Shown: piece by piece, positions 4,376 through 42,221 of the stretch
How the letters are laid out: every line of letters begins with the position of its first letter
Numbering within the stretch: position 1 is the first letter of the stretch
Made by a program: the position numbers and the translations under genes
Source: Gammaproteobacteria bacterium
GTDB taxonomy: Bacteria; Pseudomonadota; Gammaproteobacteria; JABABF01
Direction: 5' to 3'
Assembly: GCA_965237805.1 (NCBI GenBank)
Contig: OZ250153.1
Coordinates: forward strand, 1,440,001-1,504,000
Length of the DNA: 64,000 nucleotides
Notes under the pieces: generated by a model
What the model was told of the DNA's origin: nothing
Databases searched by the model: none
What the model saw: only the letters and a program-made list of their open reading frames with translations

Positions 4376-6241
4376 ATGGCGGGCGCTCAGCTGCCGTTTC
4401 GCGTGGCGCTGGCCGGTTGCCCGAACAGCGGCAAAACTTCGATTTTCAACCTGCTCAGTGGCGGCCAGCAGCGCGTCGCCAACTACCCCGGGGTCACGGT
4501 GCAATGCCAGCGCGGTGCCATGCGTTTGACGGATGGCCACGAGCAGCTGGCGCTGGAGTTGTTGGATCTGCCCGGCTGCTACAGTCTGTCATCGACCACC
4601 GCCGAACAGCGCTTGGCCACCGAATTGCTGCGCGGCGAAGTGCTTGGAGAGGCACCGCTGGACTTGGTGCTATGTGTGGTCGACGCCTGCCAGTTCGAGC
4701 AGCAGTTGCCGCTGCTGCTGGATCTGAAACGACATGGCTTGCCCTTGCTGGTAGTCTTGAATCAGGCTGATGCCGCGCGCCGTCTCGGCGTGGATTTGGA
4801 TGCCGATCGTCTCGCCGAGATGCTCGGGGCACCAGTGGTGTTCAGTGTGGCGGTGCGGCGGGCCGGTGTCGCCGCGCTGCGTGCTGCACTGCGTCGGGCA
4901 GCGCGCCGCCAAGAGCCGATTGCCAGCGATCAGATCCCCGCATCCGGGGCTGTCGGAGCGCCTGCTGTCACGCCCTCGGCCGAGGAGGTGATCGCCGCAG
5001 TGCTGCGCGCCCGCGGTGCCGAGGAGGATGTTTGGACACGGCGTTTGGATCATTTTTTACTACACCCGCTACTGGGGCCAATCGCGCTGGTCGCGACGCT
5101 GTTCTTGGTTTTTCAGGCGGTTTTTTCTTGGTCTGGGCCACCGTCAGACTTCTTGGCCGGGGCGGTCGAGTCGCTGTCCGTAGCCGCCAGTGCTTGGCTG
5201 CCGCAGGGTCTTCCCGGCCGCGGGCTATTGCTGGAAGGCATCTTGCCAGGCTTGGGTGTGGTGCTGGAGTTCCTGCCACCGATCCTCATCTTAAACCTGA
5301 TGCTGCTATTGCTTGAGGGCTCGGGCTACATCTCCCGCATCGCTTTTTTTGTCGATGAAGTGATGGCATCAATGGGGCTCAGCGGTCATGCGGTGTTCCC
5401 CTTTCTGGCTGGTTTCGCCTGTGCCATTCCGGCGCTGATGTCGGTGCGCTCCATCCCCAGCGAGCGAGTGCGCCACGCCAGCATTTTGGCGCTACCCTTG
5501 GTCCCCTGCTCAGCACGCTTGCCGGTTTACACCTTGGTGATCGCGGCGGTGATCCCGGCGCGGGAGCTGGCTTGGGGCATTGAGTTGCAGGGTTTGGTGA
5601 TGTTCGTGCTGTACTTGGCTGGCTTCGGTGCCAGCTTGGCAGCGGCAGCGGTGATCGGCTATTTGGATCGTGGCCGCTCGGTGTTGCGCGCACCGATCGA
5701 GCTGCCAGCCTTTCGCTGGCCGGTGCCGCGCAATGTGCTGATCGGCTTGTGGGTGCGCACCGCGCACTTCCTCCGCCGCGCCGGTACGGTGATTATCGCC
5801 ACGGTGGCGGTGCTATGGTTCATGACCCAGCTGCCGGTGTCCGGGCCGGGCATCGAGGGCAGTCTGCTCGGGGTTATCGGCAGTTTGCTGCATCCACTCT
5901 TCGCCCCGCTGGGCTTCAACTGGGAGATGACCGTGGCGCTGTTACCGGGGATGGTCGCCCGCGAGGTGGCGGTGTCCTCGCTGGCGACGATCTATGCCGT
6001 GCAGGGGGGCGAGGAGGGTGTGCGCTTGGCTGTGTTGTTGGCGGAGCAGTGGTCCTTGGCCACCGGAGTGGCCTTCGCGGTCTGGTATATCTTCGCCCCG
6101 CAGTGCATGGCCACTTTGGGGACTATCCGCGCCGAGACCGGTGGCTGGACATACCCCGCCATCGCCTTTGTCTACCTGATCACGCTGGCTTGGCTGGCCA
6201 GTTTCATCGTCTACCGCACACTCAGCGCGTGGGGCTTGTAG
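4376..6241 (+). CDS. feoB: Ferrous iron transport protein B
   Basis: GTPase motifs GCPNSGKT, VANYPGVTV, DLPG.YSL and NQAD; membrane gate motifs GFACAIP, PCSARLPVY and PQC. Confidence 0.96.
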   Translation: MAGAQLPFRVALAGCPNSGKTSIFNLLSGGQQRVANYPGVTVQCQRGAMRLTDGHEQLALELLDLPGCYSLSSTTAEQRLATELLRGEVLGEAPLDLVLCVVDACQFEQQLPLLLDLKRHGLPLLVVLNQADAARRLGVDLDADRLAEMLGAPVVFSVAVRRAGVAALRAALRRAARRQEPIASDQIPASGAVGAPAVTPSAEEVIAAVLRARGAEEDVWTRRLDHFLLHPLLGPIALVATLFLVFQAVFSWSGPPSDFLAGAVESLSVAASAWLPQGLPGRGLLLEGILPGLGVVLEFLPPILILNLMLLLLEGSGYISRIAFFVDEVMASMGLSGHAVFPFLAGFACAIPALMSVRSIPSERVRHASILALPLVPCSARLPVYTLVIAAVIPARELAWGIELQGLVMFVLYLAGFGASLAAAAVIGYLDRGRSVLRAPIELPAFRWPVPRNVLIGLWVRTAHFLRRAGTVIIATVAVLWFMTQLPVSGPGIEGSLLGVIGSLLHPLFAPLGFNWEMTVALLPGMVAREVAVSSLATIYAVQGGEEGVRLAVLLAEQWSLATGVAFAVWYIFAPQCMATLGTIRAETGGWTYPAIAFVYLITLAWLASFIVYRTLSAWGL

Positions 6242-6271: not shown

Positions 6272-7254
6272 TTAGGCCCGCGCTGGGAGGCCGCAGAACT
6301 CGACGATCAGCCGCCCCAGCTCGTCCCAGGGCGAGATGCTGTGATCGCCTTGGATGGCGCGGTCGACTCGGTGAGCGCGTCGCAGCAGGCGGCTGAGGCG
6401 AGCGGGTGGCAGGCGTTTTAGGCAGCGCTGCACCAGCGGTTGACGGCGGTTCCAGACGCGCTCCAGCGCGGCGCTGTCATCTTGTACCGCACTCAGCGTC
6501 TCCAGCTCGCGGCTGAGCGCCCACAGCACCCGCTGCGGTTCGGTGCGGGTGGCGCGCAGCCGTGCCATCAGGGCGAGGCTACGCTTGGCATCGCCGGCCA
6601 GTGCCGCGTCGGCGAGTTCGAAGATATCGGTTTGGGCGTTGTCGGCGATGGCCAGCGCCACCGTCTCGGTTTCAATCTGTCCGCCGCTATCGATCAGGCG
6701 CAGCTGCTCCACCGCCTGTGCTGCCGCTGCCAGATTACCCTCGGTGCGGCTGAGCAGTAATTGCAACGCATCATCGCTGAGGCGCAGCTCGGTGGCCTGC
6801 AGCCGCTGCTGTAGCCAGCGCTCCATTTCCGCTGGCTTGAGCGACCACAGGCGCAGCACGGCACCGACGCGGTCCACCGCCTTGTACCAAGCGCTGCGGG
6901 TGGTGGCTTGCTCCAGTTTGGGGCACAGCACCAGCAGCACATCGCCCTCGGGTGGAGCTTGCAGCCAGCCTTGGATGCGGCTGACGGCAGTGATATCAGG
7001 TTTTTTCTCGAAGCGCAGCTCGATGAGGCGTCGCGATGCGAACAGGCCGAGGTTGCCAGCTGCGGTATCGAAGCTGCCCCATTCGAAGTGGCGGTCGATG
7101 TGGAACAGCTGGTGCTCGCAACCAGCGGCCTTGCAGTGCTCACGGATGGCATCGCCAGCTTCCTGCGCGAGCAGCGGCTCATCGCCGCTGATCAGGTAGC
7201 TTGGGAGCAGCTGTTTTTCAAGCTGGCGGGGGAGTCTTCGGGGCGCAGATTCAT
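6272..7254 (-). CDS. holA: DNA polymerase III subunit delta (apparent 1-nt frameshift near the start)
   Basis: MNLRPE at 7254 continues, after a frame change at about 7228-7243, as LPRQLEKQLLPSYLISGDEPLL...LGLFASRRLIEL...EGNL..A.Q. It occupies the usual position after leuS-lptE. Confidence 0.9.
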
Positions 7255-7287
7255 TAGGGATGGGGAGAGGATATAGTCGCTCCGCAC

Positions 7288-7728
7288 TTAATTACTTCCA
7301 ACTTTTCCTTCCTGTCTTCCCATGACCACTGCACCGTTTGGAGTCGCACAAAACCATCTGGTTTTTACCGCATCAGGGCGTGCAGCCCTCAATTTTTCTT
7401 TTATTCTTTCATCGCTCTCTTCCAATTGAGATTTCGCCTTGCTAATATCCCGGTCAGATTTTTTTAATTCCACCAGATCAATGTACCAGTTTCCTGTTCC
7501 TCGTCGTCTTTTGTGTACTACCACGCGATCACATTTTTTGCTTCTTTGAAATCCATGGTGGCCCTCTCCGTGTCTATAGTAGTTCTCATAATGGATAATG
7601 GCATGTTCAGATTCTGGCCCAGAAATCTTGAGTGAACATGGGCATCCGTCTGCTGCATCTGCAGTCAGTTCCTTCTTATGCCATTGCTGCCAGCTAGGCT
7701 CCACAACATCCCACCATGGTCTAGTCAT
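7288..7728 (-). CDS. Small PD-(D/E)xK-like putative nuclease, partner of the upstream ATPase
   Basis: KKCDRVVV...IDLVELKK...KAKSQL matches the D...ExK...A..Q pattern of the restriction-endonuclease-like fold. AT-rich, with a GAGG RBS upstream. Confidence 0.6.
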   Translation of the reverse strand: MTRPWWDVVEPSWQQWHKKELTADAADGCPCSLKISGPESEHAIIHYENYYRHGEGHHGFQRSKKCDRVVVHKRRRGTGNWYIDLVELKKSDRDISKAKSQLEESDERIKEKLRAARPDAVKTRWFCATPNGAVVMGRQEGKVGSN

Positions 7729-7740
7729 TGATGGCTTCCT

Positions 7741-9165
7741 CTAGTCGGCGTTTCTCTTGATACATATTGTGCCATTGCCGTTCGTGATCGGAATCAGAAT
7801 GCCATCTTTTCGGATTTCATCTGTTCCGATTTTACGGACAACAGAGCCTTTTCTAGATCCCCTTGTTTGCAAGTCAAAATGATATACTCCAATGTCTTCG
7901 GCGCGAAGCTTAATGTCCGTTGCAGGGTGATCTAGCGCCATAATATTTCTTTTCTTTCTCTTGCTCAAAGATGCAGCTCTAGCAAAGGTCGATAACTGAT
8001 CTAAAATAACAGGGCTATGCGTGGTGATAATGACAGGTATGCCTTCTGCCGCCATTCTGACCAGTAATTCTACAATGCGTCTTTGCGCCGTTGGGTGCAG
8101 ATGAGATTCTGGCTCTTCTAATATAAATATAGATTGCTTCCCAATTGATCCATCATCATTAACGAGTGCTATTGGGGCTAATTCAGTCACGGCCGATCCG
8201 GCCAACTTCAGCGGAAGCCTTAGGCCGAGGCTTGTTTGATATTCAATCTCCACTGGATTACTTTTATTTTTTACAAAGGATATTTTTCCGTCGGATATTC
8301 CCTGCAATGACGTCGATATCATGCCATGTAATTTTTTATAACCGCCCATCTCATTGGCCGTCAAGTCCTTTGAGAGCAAACGCATATTTATTTGATACGA
8401 TAAATCCACTTTTGGATTGATGATCCGCACCAGGAAATCTGCTATCGATCCTTTTGGGGACACTATTTCATTGGTCCCGAAAATAGCCCTTGGTGCATTT
8501 TTCACTATAGATGCTGCAATAGTTTCCCATGATTGCATCAGCCCGCCTCTTTCGGCTGGAAGATAAACCGGGTCGAACTGACATTCTCCTGCGTATGAAG
8601 AGACAAGTCCTTCTGATGCGAATATCATGTAGGTGCTCCTCTCGGACGATTTAATTTTCCATGCAACTTTTGCAATTTCTGATATGCCTGTCCTCCATTT
8701 TCCGTTGTCGGTTATTTTTGCGCTCGGATTTTCCACATTGGGTTCATTGATGGGGCGTAGCGCCCATTGGTCACACGAGACTTCTAGTAGTCTATCTCTT
8801 TTAGGTCGTCCCGTGGGGGTGTTGGTGATGATTTGATCGACAGGCACCCCAAAGCATCGTTGCAGCTCATCCGCCATTTCCGTGCTGAGCTCCGTGATCT
8901 CCCGTTCTATAAGATTATTTATTTTCTGCAGTATCCTTGACTTCTGGCTATTTAGGGGGGGGGTGTTTAGGCGCATTGATTCTACGAGGTAGTGCCGCAT
9001 CCACCGGGACTGTTCTGCTTTGTTGGATATGGCCTTGGCCGCAGCATATATAGCTGTTGCCATAAAGGTTTTCCCTGAATTACTTGGGCCAGCAAAAACT
9101 GTTAAGGGGTGTATTTTGACGTGACCTTCAGAAATCGGCCCGATATTTTTAACTGTAATTTCCAT
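7741..9165 (-). CDS. ABC-type/AAA_15-AAA_21 family ATPase (defence-associated type)
   Basis: N-terminal ITVKNIGPI, Walker A GPSNSGKT, YLPAER, degenerate signature LAGSAVTEL, Walker B/D-loop ILEEPESHLHP and H-loop ITTHS. Clearly AT-richer than the flanks. Confidence 0.88.
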   Translation of the reverse strand: MEITVKNIGPISEGHVKIHPLTVFAGPSNSGKTFMATAIYAAAKAISNKAEQSRWMRHYLVESMRLNTPPLNSQKSRILQKINNLIEREITELSTEMADELQRCFGVPVDQIITNTPTGRPKRDRLLEVSCDQWALRPINEPNVENPSAKITDNGKWRTGISEIAKVAWKIKSSERSTYMIFASEGLVSSYAGECQFDPVYLPAERGGLMQSWETIAASIVKNAPRAIFGTNEIVSPKGSIADFLVRIINPKVDLSYQINMRLLSKDLTANEMGGYKKLHGMISTSLQGISDGKISFVKNKSNPVEIEYQTSLGLRLPLKLAGSAVTELAPIALVNDDGSIGKQSIFILEEPESHLHPTAQRRIVELLVRMAAEGIPVIITTHSPVILDQLSTFARAASLSKRKKRNIMALDHPATDIKLRAEDIGVYHFDLQTRGSRKGSVVRKIGTDEIRKDGILIPITNGNGTICIKRNAD

Positions 9166-9215
9166 TTCTTGGCCTCATTTTGTCGTGATTTAATATCTGT
9201 CTGTATCCCCACGCA

Positions 9216-9758
9216 CTATTCTATGCCATCCACCGCCCAGCGGGCATCGGCTGCGGCTCGTGCTGCCAGCTCGGCGCGCAGCTCGGCGCGCAGCTGCCGC
9301 TCCTGCGCGGCGTCGCTGTCCGGGCGCAGTAGCACTTGGCGGCGCTGGGCACGGTATTGGCGGATGATGGCTGGCTCGCTGTTATCACCATCAAGATGGC
9401 CAATCCGCACTCGCAATTTCCCACGCAGCAACACTTCGGCCTCCCGGTTCTGGCGGCTGATGCGCAACACGCGGCGGTCCTCGCTGAATTCCAAGACTTC
9501 CAAGCGCCATTGAGCGAGGGGCGGGGCGCTCGCAGCCACTGGCACCGCTTCGGCGTCTGGCGCTACTAAGCCGTAGCCGCGCATGGCCTGAGTCAATTGT
9601 TGACGCATCGCGCCTCGCTCTATGCCATCTAGTGCCACTGTGGCCACCACTGCTGGCGCGGCGCAGCCAGCGCTGAGCAGCACCGCCACCAGATAAACAC
9701 AACGCACCGCGCTGCGCTTAATTCGTCTCTGCCATTGCATCAATATCGCTTCCATCAC
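9216..9758 (-). CDS. lptE: LPS assembly lipoprotein LptE (divergent)
   Basis: Lipobox LSAGC, C-terminal ERQLRAELR helix, position directly after leuS. Confidence 0.75.
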   Translation of the reverse strand: MMEAILMQWQRRIKRSAVRCVYLVAVLLSAGCAAPAVVATVALDGIERGAMRQQLTQAMRGYGLVAPDAEAVPVAASAPPLAQWRLEVLEFSEDRRVLRISRQNREAEVLLRGKLRVRIGHLDGDNSEPAIIRQYRAQRRQVLLRPDSDAAQERQLRAELRAELAARAAADARWAVDGIE

Positions 9759-9759
9759 C

Positions 9760-12189
9760 TCAGCCTAACACCACATTGACCAGTCGTCCCGGCACCACCA
9801 CCACCCGTCGCGGTTCGCGTCCTGCCACGAAGCGTTGCACATTCTCGTGCGCGAGTGCCGCCTCGCGCAGCGCTGCTTCGTCGATGTCGGTGGCGACGCT
9901 GATGCGGGCGCGCAGCTTGCCGTTGACCTGCACGATAATTTCCTGTGTCTTGGCGGCCAATTCCTCACCCAGCTCTGGCCACGTCGCCTCGTGCACCCAG
10001 CCCGCGCCGCCGAGCCGCTGCCACAGCGCTTGGCAGATGTGCGGTGTCATCGGTGCCAGCAGCAACACGGCGCGCTCCAGCGCGTGGCCGCGCACGGCGC
10101 GTTCGGCCTCGCTGTCGGTCGGGGCGCGGGCGATGGCATTGCACAGCTCCATCACCGCCGCCGCGCCGACATTCAGCGAGCGGCGCTCGGCATAGGCATC
10201 GCCGACCCGCATCACGGCGGCGCGGGTGGCGCGGTACAGCTGCTGCACTGTGGTGGGCAGCTCTGCCACCGGTGGCAGCGGCGGTGTCGCACCGCCTGTC
10301 ACTTGGCTGTCCACCAGTCGCCACAGGCGCTTGAGGAAGCGGTGTGGCCCCTCGACAGCGGCGTCCGACCACTCCAAAGCCTGCTCTGGCGGTGCTGCGA
10401 ACAGGATGTACAAGCGCACGGTGTCGGCCCCGTAGCGGTCGATCAGACCCTGTGGATCCACCGTGTTGCCCTTGGATTTGGACATCTTCACCCCATCCTT
10501 GAGCACCATGCCCTGGCTCAGCAGTCGCGTGAAGGGCTCGTCGCCCGGCACCAAGCCCTCATCGCGCAGTACGCGGTGGAAGAAGCGCGCATAGAGCAGG
10601 TGCAAGACGGCGTGTTCGATGCCGCCCACATATTGATCCACCGGTAGCCAGTGGTGGGCGCGCTGGTCCAGCATCGCCGTGTCTTGATCCGGGCAGCTGA
10701 AGCGAGCCTGATACCAGGAGGATGCGACAAAGGTGTCCAGCGTGTCGGTATCGCGCCGTGCCTCGCCGCCGCAGCGCGGGCAGTTCACAGCATAAAAATC
10801 AGCCTGCGATTTGAGTGGTGCGGCAGAGCTTGTGGGCAGTAGCACCGGCAGCTGATCGTCCGGCACCGGCACCGCCCCGCAGGCCGCACAGTGAATGATC
10901 GGCACCGGCGTGCCCCAGTAGCGTTGCCGCGAGACACCCCAGTCGCGCAGGCGGTAGTTTACACGCCGCTCGCCCGCCTCGCGCTGTTCCAGCTCGGTGG
11001 CTATGCGCTCGCGTGCGGCGGCCGAGCTGAGACCGTCGTAATCGCCGCTGTTCACCAGCACGCCGTCCTCGGTGTAGGCACTGTCGGCGGCTACCTCGCT
11101 GTCGTCTGTCGGGGCCACCACATGTCGCACTTCCAAGCCGTAGCTGCGGGCGAAGTCGAGGTCGCGTTCATCGTGTGCCGGCACGCTCATGATGGCGCCG
11201 GTGCCGTAAGACATCAGCACGAAATTTGCCGCCCACACCGGCAGCAGTTCGCCGCTCAGCGGATGGATGGCGCGCAAGCCGGTGTCCACGCCTTCTTTTT
11301 TGCGTGCGGCCAAGGCGGCTTCGGCCACGGTGGATCGACGCTCACGCTCGATGAAAGCGGCCAGATCGGCCCGTTCTGTGGCGGCTTGGGCCAGCGCCGG
11401 ATGCCCCGGTGCCACCGCTAGGAAGGTGGCACCGGGCAGGGTGTCGGCACGGGTGGTGAAAGTGCGCAGCTCGGCCTCGCCGTCCTCCAGTGCAAAGCGA
11501 ATTTCCAAACCCTCGGAGCGCCCGATCCAGTTGCGCTGCATGGTTTTGACCGCTTCCGGCCAGCCCGTCAGCTGGTCGATCCCGCTGAGCAGTTCTTCGG
11601 CGTAGTCGGTGATGCGCAGAAACCACTGTTGCACGAGTCGGCGCTCGACCGGTGCCCCGGAGCGCCAACCGCGCCCGTCGACCACCTGCTCGTTGGCCAA
11701 CACTGTCTGATCCACCGGATCCCAGTTGAGCTCGGCCTCGCGGTGATAGACCAAACCGCGTTCGAGCAGGCGCAGGAAGAACCACTGCTCCCAGCGGTAG
11801 TACGCCGCATCGCAGGTGGCGAATTCCCGCGACCAGTCGTAGGCGTAGCCCAGTCGGCGCAGCTGTGTGCGCATGTTGTCGATGTTGTGGCGGGTCCATT
11901 CTGCCGGTGGCACGCCGCGTTGTAGTGAGGCGTTCTCCGCGGGCAGACCGAAGGCATCCCAGCCCATCGGCTGCAACACATTGCGCCCGCGCATGCGCTC
12001 GTAGCGGGCGATGGCATCGCAAATGCTGTAGTTGCGCACATGGCCCATATGCAGCTCGCCGCTGGGGTAGGGGAACATGGCCAAGCAGTAAAACTTCTCG
12101 CTACTGTGATCGTCGGCGGCAAAGGCCTGCGCCTCTTCCCAAGCGCGTTGTATGCGCAGCTCCAGTGCTGCCGGCTCGTACTCCGTCAC
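9760..12189 (-). CDS. leuS: Leucine--tRNA ligase
   Basis: FPYPSG.LHMGH and KMSKS motifs plus CP1 editing domain. The GTG start overlaps the lnt stop (GTGA). Confidence 0.98.
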   Translation of the reverse strand: MTEYEPAALELRIQRAWEEAQAFAADDHSSEKFYCLAMFPYPSGELHMGHVRNYSICDAIARYERMRGRNVLQPMGWDAFGLPAENASLQRGVPPAEWTRHNIDNMRTQLRRLGYAYDWSREFATCDAAYYRWEQWFFLRLLERGLVYHREAELNWDPVDQTVLANEQVVDGRGWRSGAPVERRLVQQWFLRITDYAEELLSGIDQLTGWPEAVKTMQRNWIGRSEGLEIRFALEDGEAELRTFTTRADTLPGATFLAVAPGHPALAQAATERADLAAFIERERRSTVAEAALAARKKEGVDTGLRAIHPLSGELLPVWAANFVLMSYGTGAIMSVPAHDERDLDFARSYGLEVRHVVAPTDDSEVAADSAYTEDGVLVNSGDYDGLSSAAARERIATELEQREAGERRVNYRLRDWGVSRQRYWGTPVPIIHCAACGAVPVPDDQLPVLLPTSSAAPLKSQADFYAVNCPRCGGEARRDTDTLDTFVASSWYQARFSCPDQDTAMLDQRAHHWLPVDQYVGGIEHAVLHLLYARFFHRVLRDEGLVPGDEPFTRLLSQGMVLKDGVKMSKSKGNTVDPQGLIDRYGADTVRLYILFAAPPEQALEWSDAAVEGPHRFLKRLWRLVDSQVTGGATPPLPPVAELPTTVQQLYRATRAAVMRVGDAYAERRSLNVGAAAVMELCNAIARAPTDSEAERAVRGHALERAVLLLAPMTPHICQALWQRLGGAGWVHEATWPELGEELAAKTQEIIVQVNGKLRARISVATDIDEAALREAALAHENVQRFVAGREPRRVVVVPGRLVNVVLG

Positions 12190-13742
12190 GTCTCTGCCCT
12201 TGCTTTTTTCTCTGTGAGTTTCCGCCCAGCCCTTACCCCGCCAGCAGTGCCAGTGGCGAGCAACACCGCGCACAATAGTAGGATCGGCAGCGACCCGAAT
12301 CGGGAGAATGGGGTCAGCCCCTCACGCACGGCGAGCTTGCCGCTGACCACTTCGCTTTGGAACAGTCCACCGCGACGGACTAAGCGCCCGCGATGATCGA
12401 CCAGTGCCGAGATGCCACTATTGGTGCTGCGCAGTAGTGCGCGGCTATTTTCCAAGGCGCGCATTTGCGCCATCTGCATGTGTTGGTGCGGCATCAGGCT
12501 GCGCCCGAACCAAGCGTCCTCGCTGACGGTGAGCAAGAATTCCGCGCCCCGTCCCGGCGCTTCGCGCACCAAGTCCGGGAAGACAATTTCATAGCAGATA
12601 TAGGGGGCGATGACATGGTCTGCGGTCTGTAGCAATGGTTGTCTCTCAGCACCTGCGCTGTAGCCGACAACGCTCAGATCCATGAATGGCAATAGGCGGT
12701 TGAGCCAGTCCGCCAGCGGCCAGTACTCGCCGTAGGGCACGAGATGGCGTTTATGGTAGGAGCCGCTGTTGCTGCCCAGCGCCCATATGGAGTTGTAGAA
12801 GTTGAAATCCCGGTGCCGTTCGGCGATGCCGCTGAACAAGGTTGCGCTTGAGGTGGTGGCTAGGGTGCTACTCTCGTGCAGCATGTCGCGGCTGTCCGGG
12901 TACCAGTTCGGCAGGGCGGTTTCCGGCCACACCACCAGCTCATACTCGCTCCACAGCGGCGCGCTGAGCTCGCGGTAGCGGGCGATGATCTGCTCTCGTT
13001 GGGCTTTTCGCCACTTGAATTCGATCGGGATATTTGCCTGCACCAGCGCCGCTGTCATCGCGGTCTTCGGACTCGGTCTCGTCCATTCCACCGTGCGGAG
13101 TAGCGTCCCGCCGCCCCACAGCAGCGCCAGCACTATCAGCGCGGTAGCGCGGGGGCCGCCACGCTTGAGGCATAGCAGTGCGGCACCGCTCAGCGCGACG
13201 GCAAAACTCACCGCCAACACACCTCCCACTGGAGCCCACCCCGCCAGCGGTGTGTCCAAGTGGCCGTAGCCGACCAGCAGCCACGGAAAGCCTGTGAACA
13301 GCCAGCAACGCATCCATTCACCCAGTACCCACACCGCCGGGAATGCCCACAGCAACCCGCGTGCGTCGTCGGCGAGTGGTAGCCTGCGCCACAGCCACCA
13401 AGGTAGTGCGCAACAGAACAGCGCCCAACCAGCACAGAATATGGTGGTGATGGTGGCGGCGAGCAACGGCGATTCCACGCCGTGGGTGGCAACGCTGACA
13501 TAGATCCACGATGCCCCGACGCCGAACTGGGCGAAGCCGTAGCAGAAGCCGCGCACGGCAGCGCTCAGCGGCGGCAAGCTGCCGAGTAGCCATGCCAGTA
13601 CTGCGGCGCTGGCGATACCCAATGGCCACCAGTTGAGCGGAGCCAGCGACAGTGGCACTAGGGCACCAGCCAGCGCGGCAGCTACATTCCCAGCGATGCC
13701 CGGTGCCGCCAGTCGTCGCCACGACGGGCACCACGTCGTCAC
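12186..13742 (-). CDS. lnt: Apolipoprotein N-acyltransferase
   Basis: TGFPW, VWPETA, YHKRHLVPYGEY and ICYE nitrilase-fold motifs. Confidence 0.96.
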   Translation of the reverse strand: MTTWCPSWRRLAAPGIAGNVAAALAGALVPLSLAPLNWWPLGIASAAVLAWLLGSLPPLSAAVRGFCYGFAQFGVGASWIYVSVATHGVESPLLAATITTIFCAGWALFCCALPWWLWRRLPLADDARGLLWAFPAVWVLGEWMRCWLFTGFPWLLVGYGHLDTPLAGWAPVGGVLAVSFAVALSGAALLCLKRGGPRATALIVLALLWGGGTLLRTVEWTRPSPKTAMTAALVQANIPIEFKWRKAQREQIIARYRELSAPLWSEYELVVWPETALPNWYPDSRDMLHESSTLATTSSATLFSGIAERHRDFNFYNSIWALGSNSGSYHKRHLVPYGEYWPLADWLNRLLPFMDLSVVGYSAGAERQPLLQTADHVIAPYICYEIVFPDLVREAPGRGAEFLLTVSEDAWFGRSLMPHQHMQMAQMRALENSRALLRSTNSGISALVDHRGRLVRRGGLFQSEVVSGKLAVREGLTPFSRFGSLPILLLCAVLLATGTAGGVRAGRKLTEKKARAET

Positions 13743-29644: not shown

Positions 29645-32683
<3,039 letters not shown>

Positions 32684-40834: not shown

Positions 40835-40999
40835 TAATTGCATCTGTAAGCGTTTGCCGATTTTCTTAGTGGCATCATTGCCGCCAAGGCAATTTAGCCG
40901 ATCTTGTCAAGGGCTTGCAAATTGTCAGTTGTGGTTCCAGAACCCTAATGCGGGGAAGTGGGACAAACATCTCAAAGGCTTGTGATTAGGGAGAACATC

Positions 41000-41806
41000 A
41001 TGCTGAGCGTGACAAAGTTAATGGTTTGGAATGCCGATCGGTTGAGCGCGGGCTTGGGAGTGATCACCAGTCTCTGTCTTGGCCGTGGCTTAGGGGTGGG
41101 GCTGTGCCTGATGGCTGTGGCGATGTTCTCGCCCGCGCGCTCCGAGGCGCTCGCCTTAGGCGAGGAGGCAGACTTGCTGATCGAGGTGGTTGTGGTGAGC
41201 GACTATGTCTTCCGTGGCATCTCGCAGACTGGAGAAGATCCCGCTGTGCAGTTGAGCTTGGAGTTGGAATTGCAGGAGATCCCGGTATCTTTCGGCATCT
41301 GGGGCTCGCAGGTAGACTTTGACGATGTGGGCACTGGCACGCTTAGTCCGATCGATTACGAGCTCGACTTTTGGGTTCGTGTCAGCGTGCCTGTGTTCGA
41401 GGATCTCGATCTCGATTTCAGCATCATCCAGTACTACTATCCCAGCAGTACGGGGGACGAGGACTACACAGAATGGCTGATCGGCACTGAAGTGGGCAAT
41501 GTTTATATCGAAGGGGTGTACAGCGAGGATTACGGCGGCCAAGGGGAGTTTTACCGCCTGAGCGCCGAGTATGTCCATAGCTTTGATGCCATCGATGTCG
41601 GTGTGCACTACGGTTGGAATCATTACGCCCGTCCGCAGTCCCTGCTCAATAACGACAACATCTATATGGATTGGGGTGTTTCCGCTTCGATTGAATGGTC
41701 CGGCATCAAGCTCGGTGTCGAGTATACCGATGTCAGCCGTTGTAGCGCAACTGGTGGCGATGCTTGCGATGCGAGAATGCTCGGCTCGATTTCTTATTCT
41801 TTCTGA
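41000..41806 (+). CDS. TorF-family putative porin (TIGR02001/Gcw_chp type)
   Basis: SDYVFRGISQT...PAVQ, G.WGS.VDF, ELD, Y.YP, Y.DW and C-terminal Phe; upstream of P-II. Confidence 0.9.
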   Translation: MLSVTKLMVWNADRLSAGLGVITSLCLGRGLGVGLCLMAVAMFSPARSEALALGEEADLLIEVVVVSDYVFRGISQTGEDPAVQLSLELELQEIPVSFGIWGSQVDFDDVGTGTLSPIDYELDFWVRVSVPVFEDLDLDFSIIQYYYPSSTGDEDYTEWLIGTEVGNVYIEGVYSEDYGGQGEFYRLSAEYVHSFDAIDVGVHYGWNHYARPQSLLNNDNIYMDWGVSASIEWSGIKLGVEYTDVSRCSATGGDACDARMLGSISYSF

Positions 41807-41882
41807 AGTGATCTAATGCTGAGGCTGGACGACGGCTGAGTCCAAAGACAGATACCCCCAAGACCGACACATGGTGTTCTCT

Positions 41883-42221
41883 ATGTATTTCATTATCGCG
41901 GTGATTAAGCCGTTTAAATTAGACGAAGTGCGTGCCCGCTTATTGGAAGCCGGTATCAGTGGTCTGACTGTCAGCCATGTCGACGGCTTTGGCAATCAGC
42001 GCGGTTTGACAGCGAGCTACCGGGGACAAGAGTCTGCGGTAATCATGCATCCAAAGATCAAACTCGAAGTTGCGGTCAGTGGCGATCAACTCGACAGCAC
42101 CATTGCAGTGATCCAATCGGCGGCTAAAACCGGTGAGATCGGAGACGGCAAGATTTTTGTGTTGCCGATGCAACAGATGGTGCGCATTCGCACTGGCGAT
42201 ACCGGCTCAGACGCTTTATAA
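41883..42221 (+). CDS. glnK: P-II nitrogen regulatory protein (GlnK position), Tyr51 replaced by Ser
   Basis: 112 aa; IKPFKLDEV, GFG.Q.G, YRG, TGEIGDGKIFV and VRIRTG motifs. Confidence 0.93.
   Translation: MYFIIAVIKPFKLDEVRARLLEAGISGLTVSHVDGFGNQRGLTASYRGQESAVIMHPKIKLEVAVSGDQLDSTIAVIQSAAKTGEIGDGKIFVLPMQQMVRIRTGDTGSDAL

Follow-up and report, generated by a model that had tools for sequence, protein, structure and literature searches.

The element considered here lies in a 64,000-nucleotide (nt) stretch of DNA from a Gammaproteobacteria bacterium (GenBank assembly GCA_965237805.1, contig OZ250153.1, positions 1,440,001 to 1,504,000), referred to below as the window. The minus strand of the window carries, in this order and all co-oriented, leuS, lptE, an open reading frame (ORF) of 474 amino acids (aa), an ORF of 146 aa and holA. 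The two ORFs occupy an AT-rich insert between lptE and holA. They appear to encode an ABC-type ATPase and a small nuclease-like partner, and the pair is examined here as a candidate phage-defence cassette. The features of the locus are as follows.

9760-12273, minus strand: leuS, operon context; TIGR00396 is matched over model positions 1-842 of 843 at 1011.5 bits
9216-9758, minus strand: lptE, the upstream flank; Pfam LptE is matched at E 3.9e-4 and 21.5 bits, just missing the cut-off of 23, and the gene follows leuS as in E. coli
7255-9215, no strand assigned: foreign AT-rich insert of 1,961 nt, reaching from the stop of lptE up to the ATG of holA
7741-9165, minus strand: ABC-type ATPase ORF of 474 aa (AAA_15/AAA_21), with Walker A at G26-T33, Walker B/D-loop at E350-P358 and H-loop at T381-S384, and without a nuclease domain
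7288-7728, minus strand: small ORF of 146 aa, PD-(D/E)xK-like partner, with putative catalytic residues D67, E87, K89 and Q101; as read, it lacks the C-terminal block of its family
7254 to about 7334-7340, minus strand: displaced C-terminal segment of the small gene, read in a different frame and ending in a TAA at 7256-7254 that overlaps the holA ATG
6272-7254, minus strand: holA, the downstream flank (TIGR01128), with its ATG at 7254-7252 out of frame with the body of the gene

The AT-rich insert within the operon

The composition of the insert sets it apart from its surroundings. Its GC content is 0.449, compared with 0.634 for the remaining window, and no other 1-kb bin across the 64 kb falls below 0.54. 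At third codon positions (GC3), the two islet genes have values of 0.44 and 0.37, versus 0.69-0.79 in lptE, leuS and holA. An earlier interpretation made from the letters alone (the sequence-only reading) had described a co-oriented, AT-rich islet of about 2 kb that splits lptE from holA, and both its extent and its composition agree with that description. Because lptE and holA overlap by 1 nt in E. coli (one chromosome examined), the islet parts a pair that is normally contiguous. holA is essential in E. coli, and the insert is wedged between two essential genes.

The genes are closely packed. The lptE stop is separated from the ATPase ATG by 50 nt, with GAGG 7 nt ahead of the ATG, and the ATPase stop from the small ORF by 12 nt that contain GGAAG; an AT-rich spacer of 34 nt leads from the stop of the small ORF to the holA ATG. 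A search for direct or inverted repeats and att-like sites flanking the islet returned nothing beyond short chance-level matches, and no integrase or transposase was present among the ORFs listed for the insert. A promoter and terminator consensus scan of positions 6800-9900 gave 3 sites against 3.0 ± 1.9, and 3 against 3.8 ± 1.9, in shuffled sequences, which is uninformative on co-transcription; the same scan, with its overall yield at chance level, gave no minus-strand site resembling a terminator within the islet.

The arrangement of the junctions bears on the idea that the AT-rich 2 kb was simply misplaced in the genome by the assembly. Such a chimera would be in keeping with a contig that is probably metagenome-derived, as we guess from its relatives, and with the clustering of two frame breaks (described below) at one junction. 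However, both ends of the islet coincide exactly with the 50-nt and 0-nt gaps between operon genes that are neighbors in E. coli, the cassette is co-oriented with these genes, and the stop of the displaced small-gene frame overlaps the start of holA (TAATG). A random chimera is not expected to produce these features, and we regard this explanation as extremely improbable.

The ATPase and its small partner

The 474-aa protein contains GPSNSGKT at residues 26-33, EEPESHLHP at 350-358 and TTHS at 381-384, and passes the Pfam cut-offs for both AAA_15 (65.7 bits; cut-off 32.1) and AAA_21 (60.1 bits; cut-off 27). The Pfam scan found neither TOPRIM nor any other second domain in it, so that the fused nuclease typical of OLD and GajA is absent from the scan result. 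A search of 5.8 billion proteins gave 76 hits, and the closest non-self relatives share only about 28% identity with it. When 33 of these relatives were aligned, G26, N29, G31, K32, E351-L356, P358 and T381-S384 proved invariant, and the ORF in the window is intact and carries all 26 invariant positions of the family. The three motifs that the sequence-only reading had named are thus conserved in the family, and the lack of TOPRIM that it had noted agrees with the Pfam scan of the window protein.

The affinities of the ATPase were examined with PADLOC models and with the structures in the PDB. The best PADLOC match is PD-T4-4_A (PDLC04033; 3.3e-29), which aligns residues 1-451 to model positions 1-429 of 460 with a modest score. 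It is followed by NsnB, AriA (2.4e-21) and PDC-M47A (1.2e-20; a partial match over residues 285-430), while Old, GajA and PtuA match at 1e-10 to 1e-14 in the Walker B/H-loop region only. Among the aligned relatives, PD-T4-4_A is matched by 33/33 (best 3.3e-47) and PDC-M47A likewise by 33/33 (best 6.8e-35). When the alignment profile was compared with the PDB, OLD (6p74) came first at 1.5e-12, followed by PtuA, GajA and FtsE. From these motifs and profile matches, the protein is assigned to the ABC ATPases of the OLD/Septu/Gabija clade, as a member without a fused nuclease.

The 146-aa ORF is more difficult to place. The pattern CD...ELK...QL that had been noticed in it is present, as C66-D67, E87-L88-K89 and Q101-L102. 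A word-index search of the same 5.8 billion proteins returned nothing, the ORF itself included. An exhaustive search of 1.84 billion representatives gave one clear relative, a protein of 164 aa (P0077) with 46% identity and an E value of 6.2e-27; a second candidate from the same search, a 785-aa repeat protein (P0078, E 4.3e-4), was discarded as spurious. A profile was also built from 60 ORFs of 118-208 aa that lie directly after the ATPase gene in 60 of the 80 related loci described below and form a single BLAST cluster. This profile recognizes the window ORF with 35.3 bits and an E value of 4.4e-13 (one target), and the alignment pairs the K-C-D, E-L-K and Q-L of the window with 'CDylf', 'ElKsG' and 'veQLq' of the family. 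We therefore take the 146-aa ORF to be a real gene.

In the 60-row alignment of the partners, E87 is invariant, and D67, K89, G91 and Q101 are conserved in ≥90% of the rows, as are an N-terminal cysteine (C31) and one C-terminal cysteine. The family consensus contains four conserved cysteine positions, which suggest a structural metal site. The only recurrent library match of the partners is to PDC-M47B: at E up to 0.1, PDLC04668 is matched by 30/60 (best 3.1e-7) and PDLC04665 by 15/60. Matches to PD-T4-4_B are weak and rare, with 2/60 for PDLC04037 (best E 0.017) and 1/60 for PDLC04034 (E 0.054), and Cas4, VRR-NUC and HSDR_N are weakly matched by single members each. The family includes at least 211 clusters without a Pfam domain and without an informative name. 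A protein atlas returned solely unnamed 'hypothetical protein' clusters of 158-185 aa, with scores of 0.90-0.91.

Predicted structures provide a further view of the partner. In the model of the window ORF (predicted local distance difference test score, pLDDT, 75.8), D67 opens a strand at 68-73, E87-x-K89 closes a strand at 81-88, and Q101 lies in a helix at 92-114. This is the canonical PD-(D/E)xK order of D...(D/E)xK followed by a helix, and the same order occurs in the model of a full-length relative, the partner from locus L008 (pLDDT 95.1). The best PDB matches of the L008 model nearly all have the restriction endonuclease (REase) fold; they include BsmI (E 0.013), NucS 2vld (probability 0.97) and FokI (probability 0.90), and further EndoMS, Can2, EcoO109I, BspD6I, Cap4, MspJI and Hna. 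For the window ORF's own model, the best Foldseek match has an E value of 0.042, which is not significant, and the matches include Cas4, AddAB, NucS, Hjc and cap-snatching endonucleases. The partner-family sequence profile gave no meaningful match to the PDB. Based on motif order and predicted fold, we assign the partner to the REase-fold nucleases with moderate confidence, in line with the suggestion of the sequence-only reading. A prediction of the 1:1 complex of the ATPase and the small ORF, made with alignments prepared for this analysis, gave a score of 0.00 (mark 0.32) and speaks neither for nor against binding.

Distribution, context and relation to known systems

Genome contigs were scanned with the ATPase alignment, and the best 80 of 397 confirmed loci were studied further. 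All 80 derive from metagenome bins, of which 17 are Dehalococcoidia, 12 are labeled Poribacteria, 10 are Gammaproteobacteria or Pseudomonadales and 3 are archaeal; Acidobacteria, Latescibacterota, Spirochaetia, Paracoccaceae and others make up the remainder. Many of these bins (Poribacteria, Entotheonella, 'Poriferihabitaceae', Dehalococcoidia) belong to lineages that we take to be typical of marine sponge microbiomes. The ATPase is thus patchily distributed over many phyla and the three archaeal bins, with 23-32% identity in these loci. Comparison of the ATPase with plasmids by tblastn gave 7 partial matches (coverage ≤23%), and with phages 1 partial match; a partner gave no match to plasmids.

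The sequence-only reading had treated the two genes as a unit, and their homologs do co-occur. The partner profile was compared with the six-frame stop-to-stop pieces of all 80 loci, at distances of -200 to +700 nt from the end of the ATPase match. A same-strand partner was found directly downstream of the ATPase in 73/80 loci by distance, and two more (L021, L067) are added because their frame opens earlier. In L068 the sole partner piece is a fragment at a distance of 1.1 kb, and L003, L024, L061 and L062 lack a partner. The ATPase and its partner therefore co-occur in 75/80 loci and constitute a conserved module. Two loci carry additional copies: L010 (8029-9750) has a tandem pair, with a second AAA_15 ATPase and then a second partner gene right behind the first pair, and L033 (5296-5769) has an additional partner gene upstream of the ATPase.

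The genomic context of the module was surveyed through the nearest neighbor on each side in 75 loci (148 ORFs, chosen by a greedy longest-ORF rule; five loci were left out since their ATPase ORF was missed by the coordinate rule). Defence-type nearest neighbors occur in 15/75 loci, and their domains comprise DNA methylases, Eco57I, GmrSD_N, S_4TM, SLFN_AlbA_2, AAA_15/21 ATPases, SNF2+NOV_C helicases, DUF1156 and DUF499+HEPN. In six loci (L011, L038, L049, L051, L053 and L073), the pair stands beside or between Hma-type genes for an SNF2+NOV_C helicase, DUF499 (+HEPN_Swt1) and DUF1156, with the SNF2+NOV_C gene, the DUF1156 gene or both present in each locus. Transposase or integrase genes flank 4 of the loci scanned. 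In one of the loci, L069 from a Paracoccaceae bin, two DDE transposase genes of the insertion sequence family IS4/5 (4957-5718 and 8364-9224) bracket the pair, and this composite-transposon-like layout might explain mobility. The remaining loci have unannotated or housekeeping flanks, such as DNA ligase (L018), RecJ (L079) or a thiamine pyrophosphate enzyme with gamma-glutamyltranspeptidase (L005), which are often co-oriented with the pair and separated from it by gaps of 8-55 nt. Since tight lodging amid housekeeping genes is frequent among the loci of the family, it appears to be a family habit and not peculiar to the window.

These observations also bear on a role in housekeeping, in which an SMC/RecF-like ATPase and a NucS/Hjc-like nuclease would have been recruited as a DNA repair or replication accessory beside the clamp-loader gene holA. 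The cassette does adjoin holA, and the fold matches include the repair nucleases NucS/EndoMS, joined by Hjc for the window ORF's own model. However, the composition of the islet is strongly foreign, and the family is scattered patchily, at low identity, over many phyla and three archaeal bins. Moreover, neither lptE nor holA nor leuS accompanies the pair in the best 80 of 397 related loci (L035 has one distant leuS-like match), and in E. coli nothing lies between lptE and holA. A housekeeping accessory is thus very unlikely.

Pairs of an ABC ATPase and a PD-(D/E)xK nuclease have already been published. PD-T4-4, from E. coli ECOR58 (Vassallo et al. 2022, PMC9519451), and WonAB (PMC12137116) are validated systems, and PDC-M47 is a listed candidate. 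The view of the sequence-only reading that the system is undescribed does not hold, given the accounts of PD-T4-4 (PMC9519451, PMC10952713, 10.1101/2025.07.10.664194) and WonAB and the matches of the partner family to PDC-M47B.

PD-T4-4 is described as having been isolated in a selection against T4 and as residing in an element that resembles an integrative and conjugative element (ICE) (PMC9519451). Its two genes encode a PD-(D/E)XK nuclease and an AAA_15/P-loop NTPase (PMC10952713; 10.1101/2025.07.10.664194), the same two-gene composition as in the window, and the best PADLOC match of the window ATPase, over its full length, is PD-T4-4_A. The differences lie in the score of the ATPase, which is far under that expected of a close member, in the small ORF, which matches no PD-T4-4_B model, and in the location, which in the window is the inside of an essential operon instead of the ICE-like element described for PD-T4-4.

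WonAB, from the WASA-1 prophage of Vibrio cholerae, is an OLD-type ABC ATPase with a variant PD-(D/E)xK nuclease (PMC12137116). According to that paper, the system requires both genes, four ATPase-motif residues and the nuclease lysine; inactivation of the ATPase destabilizes WonB, which is then lost; and the mode of action is lysis-independent abortive infection. The authors link WonAB to an in-silico 'OLD-ABC ATPase + novel REase' operon (its ref. 33, an ABC-ATPase survey) and to PD-T4-4. We adopt WonAB as the working model for the window pair, since both would combine an OLD-type ABC ATPase that lacks TOPRIM with a small variant PD-(D/E)xK nuclease, a likeness judged from the published description. 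The four conserved cysteines are a feature of the window's partner family.

PDC-M47, an untested candidate of PADLOC-DB v2, is linked to the window family from both sides. It is the only recurrent library match of the partners through PDC-M47B, all 33 aligned ATPase relatives match PDC-M47A, and six related loci are Hma-embedded. As described in the source (10.1101/2024.01.29.577857), PD-T4-4 is counted among the ABC-ATPase defences, 145 untested candidates (PDCs) were added to PADLOC, and other ABC-ATPase cassettes are embedded in Hma-type systems, the source context of the PDC candidates. The likeness is limited, as the matches are weak (B best 3.1e-7) and the B protein of the window itself has no match. 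No paper in the literature searched mentions PDC-M47 by name.

Septu (PtuA+HNH), PARIS (AriA+AriB), Gabija and OLD share the ABC ATPase clade with the window protein, whereas the window effector is neither HNH nor TOPRIM/DUF4435 and appears to be a separate small REase-fold protein. The list of known partners in the sequence-only reading (HNH, TOPRIM, RloB) omitted the REase-fold partners that were already known. As PADLOC defines PD-T4-4, the window copy is not a member of it, because the small ORF matches no library model, and its membership in PDC-M47 is doubtful for the same reason. The ATPase side agrees with both (with PDC-M47 in part), the nuclease side with neither, and the relatives link weakly to PDC-M47B. 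We therefore file the window pair, on its sequence features, as a very divergent member of the 'ABC ATPase + stand-alone REase-fold nuclease' type and not as PD-T4-4 or PDC-M47 proper.

We propose that the islet is probably a two-gene cassette gained by horizontal transfer and of the same kind as PD-T4-4, WonAB and PDC-M47, with a stand-alone nuclease partner and, by analogy with these systems, a defence function. In such a cassette, the ATPase would dimerize and hold or restrain the nuclease, or stabilize or control it. A phage-derived cue could alter the ATP-dependent state, with ATP binding or hydrolysis coupled to the release or activation of the nuclease. The freed nuclease might then cut nucleic acid by means of D67, E87 and K89, and the infection would be stopped, most likely through abortive infection.

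Several observations weigh against this proposal. Although PADLOC, to which the sequence-only reading had pointed for both proteins, provides the PD-T4-4_A match of the ATPase, the 146-aa ORF has zero significant matches in Pfam, PADLOC, PHROGs and NCBIfam (in PADLOC, 0 families at E up to 1). The PD-(D/E)xK partner that had been suggested retains the conserved D...ExK...Q core and, with moderate confidence, an REase-like fold, but none of the Foldseek matches reaches E 0.001, and the TM-scores normalized by query length are 0.3-0.4. Defence-type neighbors, for which the sequence-only reading had proposed a survey, are found in the 15 loci described above, but 60/75 loci have none as nearest neighbor, and many of these lie amid housekeeping genes. 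Finally, the small gene itself appears frameshifted, being out of frame at its 3' end.

It is also conceivable that the pair is a selfish addiction module, similar to a toxin-antitoxin (TA) system, without an anti-phage role: the ATPase would keep a nuclease toxin in check, and the module would persist through post-segregational killing and its lodging in an essential operon. In Pfam, the AAA_21 domain carries the description 'putative AbiEii toxin, Type IV TA system', and many relatives stand alone amid housekeeping genes with tiny gaps. The loss of WonB upon inactivation of its ATPase, described in PMC12137116, indicates that in WonAB the ATPase governs the stability of the nuclease. However, the nearest characterized pairs, PD-T4-4 and WonAB, were found and validated as phage defences, and the six Hma-embedded loci and the 15/75 loci with defence-type neighbors point in the same direction. 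We consider a purely selfish module quite unlikely; addiction and abortive-infection defence are not mutually exclusive.

If the cassette is active, the ABC-ATPase and REase-fold nuclease defences exemplified by PD-T4-4 and WonAB would gain a very divergent branch. The divergence is evident in the ATPase, about 28% identical to its nearest relatives, and in the partner, which, in contrast to half of its relatives, neither Pfam nor PADLOC detects. An active cassette would also indicate that such modules can lodge in an essential, translationally coupled operon without integrase or repeats. The new profile ties the orphan 146-aa ORF to a family of at least 211 clusters that could be included in defence-finding tools.

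Frame breaks at the junction with holA

Neither the 3' end of the small gene nor the 5' end of holA is in frame with the rest of its gene, a feature that does not appear in the sequence-only reading. The small ORF stops 18 residues short of P0077, and the last block of the family is not in its frame. A different frame encodes this block together with its conserved Cys-Gly (...EVIKCGATISSPHP; ...SWEDRKEKLEVIKCGATISSPHP). The family hidden Markov model (HMM) shows a weak alignment of its positions 126-151 to the displaced frame (3.7 bits; E 0.007 among 3 frames), and the tail of P0077 aligns to it with a score of 39, which 4/2000 shuffles attained. When the two frames are read through with an X at the break, the profile score increases from 35.6 to up to 40.8 bits, as one domain that reaches HMM position 151 of 157. 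The displaced frame ends in a TAA (7256-7254) that overlaps the holA ATG (7254-7252) as TAATG, similar to the stop-start overlap of lptE and holA in E. coli. A remnant in the frame of holA, 'LSAERLYPLPIP', was considered as the lost C-terminus and dropped, as the Cys-Gly sits in the other frame.

In holA, no plausible ATG other than that at 7254-7252 exists, and its frame differs from that of the body of the gene; three-frame translation places the switch in or near a C5 run at 7228-7232. The listed holA ORF of 222 aa covers only positions 96-316 of 316 of TIGR01128, whereas the frame from 7243 covers positions 2-315 of 316 with 214.8 bits; the alignment with E. coli HolA begins at residue 6 of that protein, which falls at window position 7243. 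For annotators of this genome, holA would be called truncated (222 aa) or a pseudogene. When the 46 other genes of the window were compared with NCBIfam, 40 had a match with E 1e-40 or better, almost always over the full model length, and the assembly is therefore not generally indel-ridden. Besides holA, the sole clearly incomplete match among the genes matched is a gamma-glutamyltransferase (GGT)-like ORF at 29645-31549 (634 aa), which covers model positions 2-442 of 518.

The two breaks, which lie within about 110 nt of the junction, may be real or may be consensus errors that arose where a population varies in carrying the islet. Decay of the effector and a faulty assembly at the junction are thus the two alternatives; if the breaks are real, the effector is truncated, and the translation of holA needs explaining. 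With the conserved C-terminal block lost to the frame break, the window copy may be weakened or inactive, unless the assembly is in error, and the claim of an active module is weakened accordingly.

Decay would be expected if the islet is dead cargo, that is, a former defence module whose nuclease is already truncated and inactive, whose ATPase is being lost, and which is retained since only precise excision preserves the expression of holA. The C-terminal block with the near-invariant Cys-Gly does lie in the other frame, and a second break follows about 100 nt away in holA. In addition, the model of the window ORF is less confident than that of the full-length relative (pLDDT 75.8 vs 95.1), and the good NCBIfam matches of 40/46 other genes are those of an assembly without widespread errors. 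On the other hand, the ATPase ORF is intact, with 26/26 invariant positions, and the small ORF retains D67, E87, K89 and Q101. The apparent damage to holA, a gene essential in E. coli, also favors local consensus errors over real decay. We consider dead cargo possible but doubtful, and continue to prefer a cassette of the PD-T4-4 and WonAB kind.

For this preferred cassette, the TAATG overlap suggests a history at the junction. It would have entered between lptE and holA seamlessly, such that the ancestral stop of the nuclease gene overlaps the holA ATG, and transcription of holA must therefore cross the cassette or begin within it. Transcripts from the leuS-lptE operon may run on through the cassette, and the constitutive co-transcription and difficulty of loss that the sequence-only reading suggested are putative. 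A bolder extension, which we regard as unlikely, is that the family forms a distinct clade of ABC-ATPase and four-Cys REase-fold modules, spread over more than ten bacterial phyla and archaeal bins, that insert seamlessly into housekeeping operons, with 'addiction by operon embedding' at holA and both frame breaks real. If this were true, holA could be expressed only by transcribing the cassette, and the module, whether defensive or selfish, would in this way ensure that it is itself expressed and protect itself from deletion. Under this view, the frame breaks at the junction would be traces of a conflict, still under way, between the decay of the cassette and the expression of holA.

Elsewhere in the window, a second, milder dip in GC content occurs at 40958-42221 (0.542 in 41001-42000). 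It contains a 282-aa ORF of no assigned family and a 116-aa ORF that, judged by eye, resembles a PII nitrogen-regulatory protein.

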